Shown in pieces: positions 3,680 through 8,692 of a stretch of 19,912 nucleotides of DNA. Under the pieces are notes generated by a model. That model searched no databases and was not told the DNA's origin. It saw only the letters and a list, made by a program, of their open reading frames with translations. Each line of letters opens with the position of its first letter. Position 1 is the stretch's first letter. Source of the DNA: a virus (taxonomy: Duplodnaviria; Heunggongvirae; Uroviricota; Caudoviricetes); IMG/VR virus record IMGVR_UViG_2744054627_000004; one strand, given 5' to 3'. The translations under genes and the position numbers were made by a program.

Positions 3680-5934
3680 AGCCTCCGGGCGTTTTGTCCC
3701 TCCGTCAGCATTTGCTGCAGGCACCGGTAAGGCGTTTACCGGTGCTTATGCATGGAACGCGCCACGCGAGGCTGTCGGGCGCGAAAGACCCCTTACACGT
3801 GACGAGATGCGTCAGGTGCAAGGTGTTTTATCCACGATTAACCGCCTGCCTTACTTTTTGCGCTCGCTGTTTACGTCACGCTATGACTACATCCGGCGCA
3901 ATAAAAGCCCGGTGCACGGGTTTTATTTCCTCACATCCACTTTTCAGCGTCGTTTATGGCCGCGCATTGAGCGTGTGAATCAGCGCCATGAAATGAACAC
4001 CGACGCGTCGATGCTGTTTCTGGCTGAGCGTGACCACTATGCGCGCCTGCCGGGAATGAATGACAAGGAGCTGAAAAAGTTTGCTGCCCGTATCTCATCG
4101 CAGCTTTTCATGATGTATGAGGAACTCAGCGATGCCTGGGTGGATGCGCATGGCGAAAAAGAATCGCTGTTTACGGATGAGGCGCAGGCTCACCTCTATG
4201 GTCATGTTGCTGGCGCTGCACGTGCTTTCAATATTTCCCCTCTCTACTGGAAAAATACCGTAAAGGACAGATGACCACGAGGCAGGCATATTCTGCCATT
4301 GCCCGTCTGTTTAACGATGAGTGGTGGATTAGTCAGCTTAAAGGCCAGCGTATGCGCTGGCATGAGGCGTTACTGATTGCTGTCGGGGAGGTCAATAAAG
4401 ACCGTTCTCCTTATGCCAGTAAACATGCCATTCGTGATGTGCGTGCACGCCGCCAGGCAAATCTGGAATTTCTTAAATCGTGTGATCTCGAAAACAGGGA
4501 AACAGGCGAGCGCATCGACCTTATCAGTAAGGTGATGGGCAGTATTTCTAATCCTGAAATTCGCCGGATGGAGCTGATGAACACCATTGCCGGTATTGAG
4601 CGTTACGCCGCCGCAGAAGGTGATGTGGGGATGTTTATCACGCTGACCGCGCCGTCAAAGTATCACCCGACACGTCAGGTTGGAAAAGGCGAAAGTAAAA
4701 CCGTCCAGCTAAATCACGGCTGGAACGATGAGGCATTTAATCCAAAGGATGCGCAGCGTTATCTCTGCCGTATCTGGAGCCTGATGCGCACGGCATTCAA
4801 GGATAATGATTTACAGGTCTACGGTTTGCGAGTCGTCGAGCCACACCACGACGGAACGCCGCACTGGCATATGATGCTTTTTTGTAATCCACGCCAGCGT
4901 AACCAGATTATCGAAATCATGCGTCGCTACGCGCTCAAAGAGGATGGCGACGAAAGAGGAGCTGCGCGAAACCGTTTTCAGGCAAAACATCTTAATCGGG
5001 GCGGTGCTGCGGGGTATATCGCGAAATACATCTCAAAAATATCGACGGCTATGCACTGGATGGGCAGCTCGATAACGATACCGGCAGACCGCTGAAAGAC
5101 ACTGCAGCGGCTGTTACCGCATGGGCGTCAACGTGGCGTATCCCGCAATTTAAAACGGTTGGTCTGCCGACAATGGGGGCTTACCGTGAACTACGCAAAT
5201 TGCCTCGCGGCGTCAGCATTGCTGATGAGTTTGACGAGCGCGTCGAGGCTGCACGCGCCGCTGCAGACAGTGGTGATTTTGCGTTGTATATCAGCGCGCA
5301 GGGCGGGGCAAATGTCCCGCGCGATTGTCAGACTGTCAGGGTCGCCCGTAGCCCGTCGGATGACGTTAACGAGTACGAGGAAGAAGTCGAGAGAGTGGTC
5401 GGCATTTACGCGCCGCATCTCGGCGCGCGTCATATTCATATCACCAGAACCACGGACTGGCGCATTGTGCCGAAAGTGCCGGTCATTGAGCCTTTGACTT
5501 TAAAAAGCGGCATCGCCGCGCCTCGGAGTCCTGTCAATAACTGTGGAAAGCTTACCGACGGTGATACTTCGTTACCGGCTCCCACACCTTCTGAGCACGC
5601 CGCAGCAGTGCTTAATCTGGTTGATGACGGTGTTATCGAATGGAATGAGCCAGAGGTCGTGAGGGCGCTCAGAGGTGCATTAAAACACGAACTGAGAACA
5701 CCAAATCGTCAGCAGAGAAACGGAAGCCCGTTAAAACCACATGAAATAGCGCCATCGGCCAGACTGACCCGGTCGGAACGAACGCAAATTACCCGTATCC
5801 GCGTTGACCTTGCTCAGAACGGTATCAGGCCGCAGCGATGGGAGCTTGAGGCGCTGGCGCGTGGGGCAACAGTAAATTATGACGGGAAAAAATTCACGTA
5901 TCCGGTCACTGATGAGTGGCCGGGATTCATATAA
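3669..5934 (+). CDS. A: Replication initiation endonuclease A (rolling-circle HUH nickase), two apparent A-run frameshifts
   Basis: Three listed ORFs (3627..4274, 4271..5095, 5173..5934) in three frames join into one protein of about 755 aa. HUH motif PHWHMMLF and tyrosine pair YIAKYISK are present. Breaks are at A5 runs 4251-4255 and 5047-5051. Likely start is MAVKASGRF at 3669. Confidence 0.88.
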
Positions 5935-6212
5935 ACTGAAATGAACAGCGTTGCAAGTGTGATAAAAATCATTATACTGTTTTTATATACAGCACCTTGA
6001 TCTGGAAAGATGCTATAAATGTATATTTCTATAAAAATATATGGTTTATTGATTGTGTATGCTCACTATCAAATTTATACTCCGCGCGCAATGTTGAGTA
6101 TGCTTAAGATATAGCGTTTACAATTCCAGGCTTGAAGGCTCGGGTATAGGTAAAAATTGAGTGTTCTCGGTTGCTTTTCGTGACATAAGAGGACAGCAAA
6201 GGAGGTTGAGTA

Positions 6213-6682
6213 TGTACAGCCCATTGAACATCGCGAATAAGTTTATAGAACTTGCTTGCGCGGCTGGTATGCCAATCACCCAGATGCAGGCACAAAAGCT
6301 GACCTATATAGCACATGGTATAAATCTGGGTTACAAAGGGACGCCTTTGTTAACGACACCAGTTTGTGCATGGCGTTATGGTCCAGTGGTTCCAGTTCTG
6401 TATAACCATCTTAAAGTTTATGGCCGTAGTCCCATAACACAACCAATACAAGTTCCATCGGCAATTTCTCAGGAGTTTGACCCTATGACTGAGCAGTTGC
6501 TGCAGAACGTTTATAACGTTTACGGTAAATATACCGCTGAGGATTTATCTGCTTTCACACATCGTGAAGGTACTCCTTGGAAGCAAGCAATGGATAGTCG
6601 TATGGATATCATTCCTGATTCCGTTATTCAGGATTACTATCAAAAGCTGCTACACGGCGATAGCAATTGCATCGGACTATGA
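6213..6682 (+). CDS. Panacea-domain (DUF4065 / GepA / PanA-like) protein, putative antitoxin-type component
   Basis: 156-aa ORF with strong RBS AAGGAGG 6 nt upstream of the ATG at 6213 (listed ORF starts earlier, at 6161, in the same frame). Signature KLTYIAHG...AWRYGPVVPVLY...YG...THREGTPW resembles what I recall of DUF4065; not checked by HMM. Confidence 0.6.
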
Positions 6683-6696
6683 GTCCGAATTAAGAT

Positions 6697-6722
6697 AACC
6701 CCGTCTATGTACGGGGTTTTTT
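6697..6722 (+). terminator. Intrinsic terminator between the Panacea-like gene and the next ORF
   Basis: Stem ACCCCGT (6698-6704) / ACGGGGT (6711-6717), loop CTATGT, then a T6 tract (6717-6722) that runs directly into the ATG at 6723. Confidence 0.6.
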
Positions 6723-7106
6723 ATGCCTGACGATAATAAGAAAGTGACAGCTGAATTTGATAAAGACCTTCTCAGACGATTGCAGCAAGCTGAGCAGAAT
6801 CTGATAACTGCCTCTGCGGCTTTGGGAGATGAGGGCTGTTGGGATGAAGAATCTCATGAGCCTGAGTCTGTTGAGGACGCTGTTGATGAAATGCAAAAGG
6901 AAGAAGAGGATGCTGCGACCATGCAGCGTTTGGATTTATCCAGTCTTAATTTTCAAATTGCTGAATTGAGTCGCTGTGTTGAAACTATAAGCACTAACCT
7001 TGAAAGCGTACAGGCAGAAACCAAAAGAAAAATGCGGAAACCGACGGCCTGCTTACGGACAATGAGCTCCGTAGAACTATGGCTGATAAAACATATCAAT
7101 TCATGA
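6723..7106 (+). CDS. Acidic, coiled-coil-like hypothetical protein (127 aa as read)
   Basis: Listed ORF; very D/E-rich central segment (DEGCWDEESHEPESVEDAVDEMQKEEEDAATMQ). The 3' end may be frameshifted into the downstream TM ORF at the A5 run 7029-7033. Confidence 0.5.
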   Translation: MPDDNKKVTAEFDKDLLRRLQQAEQNLITASAALGDEGCWDEESHEPESVEDAVDEMQKEEEDAATMQRLDLSSLNFQIAELSRCVETISTNLESVQAETKRKMRKPTACLRTMSSVELWLIKHINS

Positions 7107-7165
7107 TTGTTTGGTGTTGTTTTGTCGGCTGGGTCATATTTATGTATGTATTGAAAAAGATTTGA
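7103..7165 (+). CDS. Tiny hydrophobic single-TM peptide (20 aa; 28 aa if started at ATG 7079)
   Basis: Manual translation MIVWCCFVGWVIFMYVLKKI; ATGA overlap with the stop of the 127-aa ORF; not in the ORF track because under 60 aa. Confidence 0.35.
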   Translation: MIVWCCFVGWVIFMYVLKKI

Positions 7166-7193
7166 TCCACCAGAAACAATTATCATTGCGCTT

Positions 7194-7292
7194 ATGGGAA
7201 CCACAACTGTGAGTATTGTGGGATTGGTTGGGTTTGTTGTTAGTGGTTTGTTCAAAAGCAACAATAAACCTTCTGGCGACAATAAAAATTAA
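7194..7292 (+). CDS. Tiny hydrophobic single-TM peptide (32 aa)
   Basis: Manual translation MGTTTVSIVGLVGFVVSGLFKSNNKPSGDNKN. The same frame is open upstream (KRFDPPETIIIAL...), so it may be the second TM helix of one frameshifted two-TM protein. Confidence 0.3.
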   Translation: MGTTTVSIVGLVGFVVSGLFKSNNKPSGDNKN

Positions 7293-7300
7293 TCATCAAA

Positions 7301-7327
7301 GTGGCACCTTTGGGTGCTATTTTTTTG
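7301..7327 (+). terminator. Intrinsic terminator closing the cargo module
   Basis: Stem GGCACC (7303-7308) / GGTGCT (7313-7318), loop TTTG, followed by ATTTTTTT. Confidence 0.6.
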
Positions 7328-7477
7328 CTTTTTCCGCGATTTCACTGTTTTTTCCGTGCATCATGTGATGCATGAGTTTGAATGTGCTTTAGTCGAGCTC
7401 ACTTGCTTTCTGCTGCCAATGCTAGCTAGGTTTGACGGTGTTCATGCAACTGCATTAAACCGACCATGAAGCGGGCG

Positions 7478-7494
7478 GGCGAGGCGGAAAGCAC
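7478..7494. other. cos: cos site (cohesive-end sequence) of the P2-like phage
   Basis: GGCGAGGCGGAAAGCAC matches my recollection of the P2 19-nt cohesive end GGCGAGGCGGGGAAAGCAC except for a shorter G run; it sits between the cargo and Q as in P2 prophages. Confidence 0.65.
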
Positions 7495-7662
7495 TGCGCG
7501 CTGGCGGTGGTGCTGATTTTATTTTTTCGGCGTCTCAGCGCGTCGTGATGGCGTTTAGATTGTGTGCCGGGGCGTCGGTGTGTCTGCGGGCTGTTTTGCG
7601 TGGAGGTGAGCGTGTGAGGGCGTGATGACGGGGTGTAAAAAGCCGCCCGCAGGCGGCGATGT

Positions 7663-8692
7663 TCAGCCGTTGTCAGTGTCCAGTGAGTAGTTTTTAAAGC
7701 GGATGACCTCCTGACCGAGCCAGCCGTTTATCTCGCGGATCCTGTCCTGTAGCGGGATAAGCTCATTGCGGACAAAGACCTTTGCCACTTTCTCAATATC
7801 ACCCAACGACCCGACGTTCTCCGGCTTGCCGCCCATCAACTGAAAGGGGATGCGGTGCGCGTCCAGCAGGTCAGCGGCGCTGGCTTTTTGATATTAAAAA
7901 ATCGTCCTTCGTTGCCACTTCACTGAGCGGGATAATTTTAATGCCGTCGACTTTCCCTGCGGGGCATAGAGAAACAGATTTTTAAAGTTGTTGCGGCCTT
8001 TCGACTTCACCATGTTTTCGCGAAGCATTTCGATATCGTTGCGATTCTGCACGGCATCAGTGACGTACATGATGTATCCGGCATGTGCGCCGTTTTCGTA
8101 ATACTTGCGGCGAAACAGCGTGGCCGACTCATTCAGCCAGGCAGAATTAAGGGCGCTGAGATATTCCGGCAGGCCGTACAGCTCCTGATTAATATCCGGC
8201 TCCAGCAGGTGAAACACGGAGCCGGGCGTGAAGGCTGTCGGCTCGTTGAAGGACGGCACCCACCAGTAAACATCCTCTTCCACACCACGGCGGGTATATT
8301 TTGCCGGTGAGGTTTCCAGTCTGATGACCTTACCGGTGGTGCTGTATCGCTTTTCCAGAAACGCATTACCGAACACCAGAAAATCCAGCACAAAGCGGCT
8401 GAAATCCTGTTGCGAAAGCCACGGGTGCGGGATAAACGTTGAAGCCAGAATATTGCGTTTGACGTAAATCGGTGAGCTGTGATGCACGGCAGCACGCAGG
8501 CTTTTGCCAGACCGGTAAAGCTGACCGGTGGCTCATACCATCTGCCGTTACTGATGCACTCGACGTAATCCAGAATGTCACGGCGGTCGAGTACCGGCAC
8601 CGGCTCACCAAAGGTGAATGCTCCATTTTCGGGGCGCTGGCGGTCATTGTTTTTGCCGCAGGTTGCGGTGTTTTCCCTTTTTTCTTGCTCAT
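7663..8692 (-). CDS. Q: Portal protein Q, multiple apparent frameshifts
   Basis: Start [19 protein letters not shown] at 8692; listed fragments 8366..8692, 8133..8600 and 7894..8487 lie in different frames; C-terminus ...EVIRFKNYSLDTDNG ends at 7663. Span 1030 nt against about 1035 expected. Confidence 0.85.

Follow-up and report, generated by a model that had tools for sequence, protein, structure and literature searches.

How a toxin gene is expressed when its start codon lies directly against what looks like a transcription terminator is the question raised by a locus in viral DNA of the class Caudoviricetes (IMG/VR record IMGVR_UViG_2744054627_000004). In the analysed stretch of 19,912 nucleotides, hereafter the window, a predicted antitoxin gene with a Panacea domain, panA, is followed on the same strand by panT, the gene of its predicted membrane toxin partner, and the two are separated by a hairpin with a T-tract (6697-6722) that runs straight into panT. 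An earlier note, made from the sequence alone, had described this junction and proposed that a terminator between a putative antitoxin and its partner would set a high ratio of antitoxin to partner transcripts and could make expression of the latter depend on read-through or on RNA structure. The junction was compared with those of related cassettes, its RNA was folded, and the two genes and their surroundings were re-examined.

Hairpin at the panA-panT junction

The stop codon of panA (TGA) is located at 6680-6682 and the ATG of panT at 6723-6725. Between them, on the plus strand and starting 14 nt past the stop codon, lies a hairpin (6697-6718) composed of a 5' arm AACCCCGT (6697-6704), a loop CTATGT (6705-6710) and a 3' arm ACGGGGTT (6711-6718). 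A tract of six T (T6; 6717-6722, plus strand) completes it and would be both the U-tract of a terminator and the spacer between the Shine-Dalgarno (SD) element and the AUG. Indeed, GGGGU (6713-6717, plus strand), located within the 3' arm about 5-6 nt upstream of the ATG, is the only SD-like element of panT. A terminator scan flagged the hairpin on the plus strand, with eight pairs (five of them G-C), a loop of 6 nt and the tail TTTTATGC; the features by which intrinsic terminators are recognised, namely a GC-rich stem of at least 5 bp, a loop of 3-8 nt and a T-rich tract directly after it, are thus all present, as the earlier note had supposed. Six terminator-like sites were found in the region 5800-7700, versus 1.7 +/- 1.4 in shuffled sequences. 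Because the tail on the minus strand (ATCTTAATTC) is not T-rich, a bidirectional terminator was ruled out and the hairpin is regarded as a unidirectional one.

The hairpin alone folds with -11.7 kcal/mol and its helix dominates the local fold. For the 91-nt region around it, z = -2.5 relative to shuffles, and RNAalifold recovers the same helix. The hairpin, the T6 tract and the ATG are base for base the same in CUVM3 and 120899, both of the independent complete Escherichia coli genomes that were aligned. The T6 tract is therefore genuine and not a homopolymer error of the contig.

Comparison with relatives shows that the hairpin goes far beyond chance. The sample consisted of 27 distinct hairpin-type junctions, obtained from PanT homologues and their DNA, with identities of 35-86% for PanT and 43-90% for PanA. 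Across these junctions the stem is paired in 215 of 215 cells (100%), and changes on both sides, i.e. compensatory ones, occur at six of nine pairs (22 cells); when the pairing partner is slid along the alignment, only 31-56% of the cells remain paired. In an alignment of 19 sequences, the helix was 99.4% paired, with changes on both sides at seven of nine pairs. The stem variants found at the same place include ACCCCGT/ACGGGGT, ACCCCAT/ATGGGGT, ATCCCGT/ACGGGAT, GCCCCGT/ACGGGGC, ACCCCGC/GCGGGGT and GCCTCG/CGAGGC; stems comprise 8-10 pairs, with energies of -11.3 to -18.8 kcal/mol. T-runs of 6-8 stand directly 3' of the GC-rich stem at 25 of the 27 junctions, at least five T are found in the eight bases past the stem at 26, and close relatives carry T7. 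The gap from the panA stop codon to the panT ATG measures 40-47 nt in hairpin-type relatives, and in all 27 junctions the sole SD-like element is supplied by the 3' arm, with its G-run or GAGG about 6-12 nt upstream of the ATG, in line with the earlier suggestion that the G-rich descending stem could double as an SD element. It is thus very likely that the hairpin is a selected RNA structure.

Its position also fits termination. Given the footprint of the ribosome, a hairpin that begins 14 nt past the stop codon should not be melted by the terminating ribosome; a stem under selection is thus found past the stop codon and out of reach of that ribosome. From its sequence, the hairpin probably terminates transcription. 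In the folded read-through RNA, the probability that the SD is unpaired is about 0.00, and it is 0.1-0.7 for the U-tract and the AUG; the model of this RNA makes it reasonably likely that the hairpin occludes the ribosome-binding site (RBS) of panT in transcripts that pass it.

Other elements at the junction were set aside. A search of Rfam with this region of the window gave no match near the gathering score, and the weak matches to RyhB, isrJ and anti-hemB (6640-6724) merely reflect a terminator-like 3' end. Mini open reading frames (ORFs) in or over the hairpin (ATG at 6679 and at 6707) are taken as chance, the loops not being conserved. A 7-bp hairpin around the panA stop codon (TCGGACT-ATG-AGTCCGA, 6672-6688) is not a general feature (58.6% paired across relatives); it is kept, with one compensatory variant, in the closest relatives only and is probably lineage-specific.

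Putative panT promoter and competing explanations

The alignment of the 27 junctions contains two invariant blocks that go beyond what the hairpin explains. The first, TTGC (6667-6670), is invariant at 27/27 junctions and belongs to a putative -35 hexamer TTGCAT (6667-6672, plus strand) within the last panA codons AAT TGC ATC. The Cys codon is TGC in all 27, and the base before it is always T, though the codon to which this T belongs varies (AAT, TCT, GCT, ACT, GTT, ATT, AGT; six amino acids); the third positions of the adjoining Gly and Leu codons are free to vary, with 0.14 and 0.36 bits. The second block, TAnnAT, corresponds to a putative -10 hexamer TAAGAT (6691-6696, plus strand) located 18 bp past the -35 and directly 5' of the hairpin. 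Its four outer positions are invariant at all 27 junctions, and its two inner positions and the surrounding intergenic columns (seven before it) are nearly free, at about 0.1-0.7 bits. The spacer between the blocks measures 17-18 bp in every junction and the hairpin begins 0-1 nt past TAnnAT. From the usual distance between a -10 hexamer and a start site, transcription is predicted to start at G6703 (plus strand), a G preceded by C, 7 nt past the -10 and inside the 5' arm of the hairpin; a purine occupies this column at 27/27 junctions (G in 26, A in one). Conservation is thus concentrated, as expected for a promoter, on the information-rich positions (TTG; T-12, A-11 and T-7), with a fixed spacing and with constraint at synonymous sites. 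The two blocks look like a σ70 -35/-10 pair in their information pattern and spacing, and we lean towards regarding the promoter as functional, its activity and start site being predicted from this conservation. Longer versions of PanT (MINPVYITGFF... extensions in the homologues P0015 and P0016) arise only where the -10 reads TATGAT and were rejected as the panT start; the frame upstream of the ATG in the window has TAA.

The RNA that would start there differs from the read-through RNA. A start inside the 5' arm removes the C-run, and RNAs starting at 6701-6704 accordingly cannot form the hairpin when folded. For starts at 6702-6704, the SD is unpaired with a probability of about 0.2-0.3, and for starts at 6703-6704 this value is about 0.3 and the U-tract and AUG are unpaired with 0.7-0.9. 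An SD that is sequestered in one form of the RNA and open in the other is thus obtained by computation.

Not all relatives have this module. Four hairpin-less lineages were found, namely the type of Shiga toxin-producing E. coli (STEC), which carries the experimentally validated PanA, and the loci L025, L148 and L149. In none of them is TTGC followed by TAnnAT 17-18 bp downstream, the PanA Cys codon is TGT in three of the four (TGC in L148), and the junctions of 21-26 nt contain an ordinary, unsequestered SD (AGGGA, GGAG or AAGGA). The hairpin and the TTGC/TAnnAT blocks are a clade-specific, all-or-none module of the aligned sequences. Nor does the hairpin characterise PanA junctions in general: distant PanA cassettes have overlapping or very short junctions. 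In the STEC-type locus L003 (3020-3056), the panT SD TTCAGGGA can pair with CTCTGAA across the panA stop codon (seven pairs), which suggests translational coupling instead of a terminator; this pairing is not conserved in L025, L148 and L149.

The reading that we modestly favour combines a panA terminator and RBS lock with a separate weak promoter for panT. In this scheme, panA would be transcribed from upstream promoters and translated from its strong SD, and its transcripts would reach the eight-pair hairpin and U6 past the stop codon, where most would end just before the panT AUG. In the RNA that reads through, the hairpin would bury the only SD-like G-run and abut the AUG, and translation would be poor. 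A weak σ70 promoter of panT itself (-35 TTGCAT, -10 TAAGAT, start near G6703) would give low-level expression of the toxin; its mRNA, being devoid of the C-run, would contain no terminator and would use the G-run as SD and the U-tract as spacer. Antitoxin and toxin would thus be insulated transcription units with a large built-in excess of antitoxin, which makes sense because PanT is predicted to be a pore-forming toxin. The T-tract would abut the ATG because the G-run and the U-tract serve doubly, which would require an ATG no farther from the 3' arm than SD range. Of the dependence of panT on read-through or RNA structure proposed in the earlier note, the part played by RNA structure is supported, as the hairpin is predicted to shut the SD in read-through RNA; read-through is probably not the only source, since a conserved -35/-10 pair overlaps the junction.

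Several points weigh against this reading. The match of the promoter to consensus is weak (TTGCAT 3/6, TAAGAT 4/6, spacer 18 bp), and it falls below the threshold of a consensus promoter scan, which did not flag it. Its score with a position weight matrix (PWM), built with approximate frequencies, is not significant alone: the site ranks 6th in the region and 3.2 equal or better sites are expected in shuffles. This score was dropped as stand-alone evidence and, the match being weak, the case for the promoter rests on conservation. Even in hairpin-free RNA, the G-run can pair weakly with codons 2-3. None of 500 shuffles of the 27 sequences reaches the observed covariation score, yet these sequences are kin and shuffle controls overstate the significance, a bias that is lessened by the control with slid partners and by the number of independent types of pair. 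Lastly, two junctions have the hairpin but a poor T-tract (none in L011, TTTT after a longer stem in L023); the stem must therefore have a value beyond canonical termination.

The most serious competitor, which we nevertheless consider unlikely, is a simple attenuator within one operon, along the lines of the earlier note, where the hairpin and U-tract would end most transcripts and panT would be expressed only from read-through RNA whose hairpin breathes or is melted. TTGC and TAnnAT would then be kept for a different reason, for instance as the operator of a protein or as a site of RNA processing or of the Hfq type. The anatomy of the terminator and the covariation are as expected from it, the putative promoter is weak by consensus and unlisted by the scan, and the toxin-antitoxin (TA) systems ToxIN and HicA^T B work by the read-through ratio alone. 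However, it leaves unexplained why the invariant bases fall exactly at T-12, A-11, A-8 and T-7 with a variable middle, why they stand 17-18 bp from an invariant TTGC, why this TTGC is kept at synonymous sites, and why the TTGC/TAnnAT signals and the hairpin are lost jointly in the hairpin-less relatives; moreover, with the SD about 0% unpaired in the read-through RNA, synthesis of toxin from this RNA alone would be very inefficient. The hairpin could also be no terminator but a post-transcriptional element, either an occluder of the panT RBS or a stabiliser of the 3' end of a processed panA mRNA, the T-run being kept merely as an A/U-rich SD-AUG spacer or as a binding site for S1. The strong stems of L011 and L023 (-16.9 and -18.8 kcal/mol) with little or no T-tract, the constant SD range between the G-run and the ATG, and the HicA^T B hairpin, which also cuts downstream translation, speak for this explanation. 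It is rendered improbable by the T-runs past the GC-rich stem at 25/27 junctions, which are the canonical signature of a terminator and are more than a spacer needs, and by the distance of at least 14 nt past the stop codon, at which the terminating ribosome would not open the hairpin.

Next to no weight can be given to a palindrome that arose by chance, or to a neutral, functionless remnant of the way in which the cassette was assembled. A single site can indeed arise by chance, as the shuffled 1.9-kb region gives 1.7 terminator-like sites, but complete pairing with compensatory substitutions at the PanT identities sampled effectively refutes it, and the distances of the hairpin from stop codon, -10 and ATG are fixed. 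An extension of the favoured scheme is doubtful, though slightly less so than a purely post-transcriptional hairpin: the junction may form a compact 'terminator-embedded promoter' whose 26 bp are read in two ways, in RNA from the panA promoters as a terminator and RBS lock, with the C-run paired to the G-run and the U-tract, and in RNA begun within the stem as SD (G-run) and spacer (U-tract). Transcription of the toxin could then be inversely coupled to that of the antitoxin by promoter occlusion. Polymerases from panA would then cross the panT promoter before terminating, and the cassette would sense the collapse of its own antitoxin transcription, for instance during a host shut-off induced by a phage, and raise the toxin at that moment.

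PanA-PanT systems, which prophages commonly carry, serve as a model for "hyperpromiscuous" antitoxins. If the terminator-and-promoter scheme is true, the two genes of this clade would not form a classical co-transcribed, translationally coupled type II operon, and the proportion of antitoxin to toxin would be hard-wired at the RNA level. A practical caution for cloning follows, as the toxin may be expressed even from a fragment lacking panA. Designers of compact genetic insulators, too, may find the interleaved layout useful to consider.

The two genes and their genomic setting

The panA gene (6212-6682, plus strand) codes for a 156-aa protein whose C-terminus reads D-x-x-C-I-G-L before the stop codon, and is preceded by a strong SD AGGAGG (6200-6205, plus strand) located 6 nt before the ATG; relatives have (A)AGGAGG or GGGGG. 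The protein matches the Pfam family PF13274 SocA_Panacea (DUF4065) with E = 5.2e-18 and 66.5 bits against a cutoff of 25.7, which puts the putative antitoxin of the earlier note in the Panacea-domain family, with the downstream gene as its toxin partner. In its C-terminal segment (window 6661-6682), C-x-G-L-stop is invariant in the whole clade, the validated STEC PanA included, and in hairpin-type loci the third residue ahead of the Cys is likewise invariant, being D (D-x-x-C-x-G-L).

The panT gene (6723-7292, plus strand) is broken in the window. The same 1.3 kb is present in 11 complete E. coli chromosomes at 99.4-99.7% identity, where RefSeq names the first product (156 aa) a 'Panacea domain-containing protein' and the second (190 aa, WP_001112381.1), which starts at the same ATG, a 'DUF2975 domain-containing protein'. 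Relative to CUVM3 and 120899, two of these genomes, one base is missing in each of three homopolymers of panT (A6 to A5 near 7028; A6 to A5 and T4 to T3 near 7159-7161); these deletions shift the frame out and back and leave a truncated ORF of 127 aa, a product also called on the NCBI record of the window. The short 'acidic ORF' of the earlier note must thus be replaced by a gene for a 190-aa protein with two transmembrane (TM) segments, of which only the N-terminal half is acidic. Over 9.3 kb, the window differs from one of these complete genomes, which is 98% identical, by about 30 indels, all of which, except in a short divergent stretch (7554-7571), are deletions of one base (in two places two bases) in homopolymers of the window, for example at 2394, 2446, 3477, 4251, 5035, 7028, 7159-7161, 7348, 7486, 7885, 8502, 9760 and 10388. 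They also break the gpA gene (4271-5095 and 5173-5934) and the portal gene (three frames over 7894-8692). These deletions are systematic sequencing under-calls and not biology, and ORF lengths in this contig are therefore not trustworthy. A programmed frameshift at a weak match to the Rfam DnaX element (7009-7063; 18.4 bits against 35) was rejected, as the complete genomes have A6 and an intact frame; the match overlies the A-rich run ACCAAAAGAAAAA, where the window is frameshifted by the sequencing error.

Intact PanT has an acidic, coiled N-terminal half, two hydrophobic C-terminal helices that appear to span the membrane and an invariant SIVGLVGFVVSGLF motif. Its N-terminal M(P/S)(D/E)(D/E)N is conserved among homologues from the ATG at 6723, which is therefore taken as the start of the gene. 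The family DUF2975 (PF11188) matches PanT below its gathering threshold (22.1 bits against 27, E = 1.6e-4) and in the TM region only; the name is a weak label, not a function. A co-oriented gene for a membrane toxin with C-terminal TM helices thus adjoins panA, as expected of a PanAT pair, and the predicted functions of both proteins derive from homology to the validated pair.

A P2-like prophage carries the cassette, which is flanked by the replication gene A and by cos/portal gene Q and so occupies a known P2 hotspot. The gpA ORFs span 4271-5934 and the portal ORFs, on the minus strand, 7894-8692; RefSeq names its neighbours in the complete genomes as a replication endonuclease and a phage portal protein. 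A GPA gene upstream and a portal gene downstream were found in eight relatives, among them L059, L141, L143, L144, L146 and L147, and all hairpin-type loci with enough flank are located between these two genes. The sequence GGCGAGGCGGAAAGCAC (7478-7494) matches the 19-nt cohesive end of P2, GGCGAGGCGGGGAAAGCAC, which would place cos between the cassette and gene Q; two G are missing here in the window, the complete genome having GGGG.

Upstream of panA (6053-6124), a conserved TATAAT/TATACT (6076-6081) is followed by the GC-only block CCGCGCGC (6082-6089), then by TTGAGT (6094-6099; TTGACA or TTGACG in relatives) and a second -10-like hexamer. Judged from the motifs, this resembles a tandem pair of promoters of which the first has a GC-rich discriminator, and the region is conserved across many hotspot cassettes. 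The terminator scan placed another terminator-like site 3' of panT (7298-7333, plus strand). On the minus strand and downstream of the portal gene, GCCGCC-TGCG-GGCGGC followed by TTTTT (7642-7657) faces the cos region and probably terminates the leftward P-Q operon. Some relatives carry extra cargo 3' of panT (L059 3767-5509; L146 2353-3051; L145 2463-3217; L143 2096-2740), such as genes for an AIPR-domain protein, a DUF4145 protein, DUF8209 and DUF1493 proteins or an unannotated 214-aa ORF; in this hotspot PanAT thus often occurs in a stack with further candidate genes for defence. The PADLOC defence models gave no significant match and recognised neither PanA nor PanT. The phage collection contained no DNA match to the region, the scan of genome contigs confirmed one locus only, and no further toxin partner for this PanA clade emerged when viral contigs were searched with PanA.

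Comparison with known systems

The closest characterised system is the PanA-PanT pair of E. coli STEC O31 validated by Kurata et al. 2022 (PMC8832971), in which PanA is WP_000287252.1; PanT, whose N-terminus is charged and whose TM segments are C-terminal, acts by depolarising and permeabilising the membrane, and PanA neutralises it. In locus L003, WP_000287252.1 is annotated and followed by a 182-aa protein. The gene order panA-panT is the same as in the window, PanA is 45% identical and PanT is 44% identical over the C-terminal 95 aa (the two-TM half), and both PanT proteins share the layout of a charged N-terminus and C-terminal TM segments. In contrast, the STEC pair is found in another prophage context and has a 22-nt junction with an SD AGGGA but no hairpin, T-tract, TTGC or TAnnAT. 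The published PanAT accounts examined, PMC8832971 included, do not mention a terminator or the transcriptional architecture.

Rousset et al. 2022 (PMC9122126) and a study in Nucleic Acids Research (NAR) 2026 (PMC13586616) described the P2 gpA-portal (Q) defence hotspot, which is exactly where the cassette is located. The main texts of both papers contain no 'DUF4065', 'SocA', 'terminator' or 'Panacea'; 'PanA', searched in PMC13586616 and not in PMC9122126, gave no hit in the main text of the former other than the software name PanACoTA.

Each ingredient of the junction has a precedent: a terminator between the genes in HicA^T B, an internal promoter in axe-txe and a terminator-set ratio in ToxIN. 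The interleaved layout apparently has none, as a terminator stem interleaved with a promoter and start site, with a G-run and U-tract that are doubly used, was not found in the literature searched, a search that was not exhaustive. In HicA^T B (Lin et al., NAR 2025, PMC11878559), an internal intrinsic terminator located just 5' of the RBS of the second gene lowers the mRNA and the translation of that gene. As in the window, a GC-rich hairpin with a U-tract stands between two type II TA genes, and terminator-bearing and terminator-less subfamilies coexist. However, the toxin gene comes first in HicA^T B, so that the terminator raises the toxin:antitoxin ratio, its U-tract measures 3 nt and no promoter overlapping the hairpin was described, whereas in the window the antitoxin gene comes first, the U-tract is canonical (T6-T8 among relatives) and the stem overlaps a putative promoter and start site. 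In the type III systems ToxIN, CptIN and TenpIN (PMC3401426), which are phage-defence modules, a short palindromic terminator between the antitoxin repeats and the toxin gene sets their relative levels; their antitoxin is an RNA and the toxin is expressed by read-through, unlike in the window, which has a protein antitoxin and a predicted separate promoter for the toxin. Finally, in axe-txe (Boss et al. 2013, PMC3760812), the promoter p_axe inside the antitoxin coding sequence gives the toxin its own transcript and tunes the antitoxin:toxin ratio. No terminator separates these two genes and p_axe adds to the transcription of the operon, whereas in the window the promoter would interleave with the terminator.

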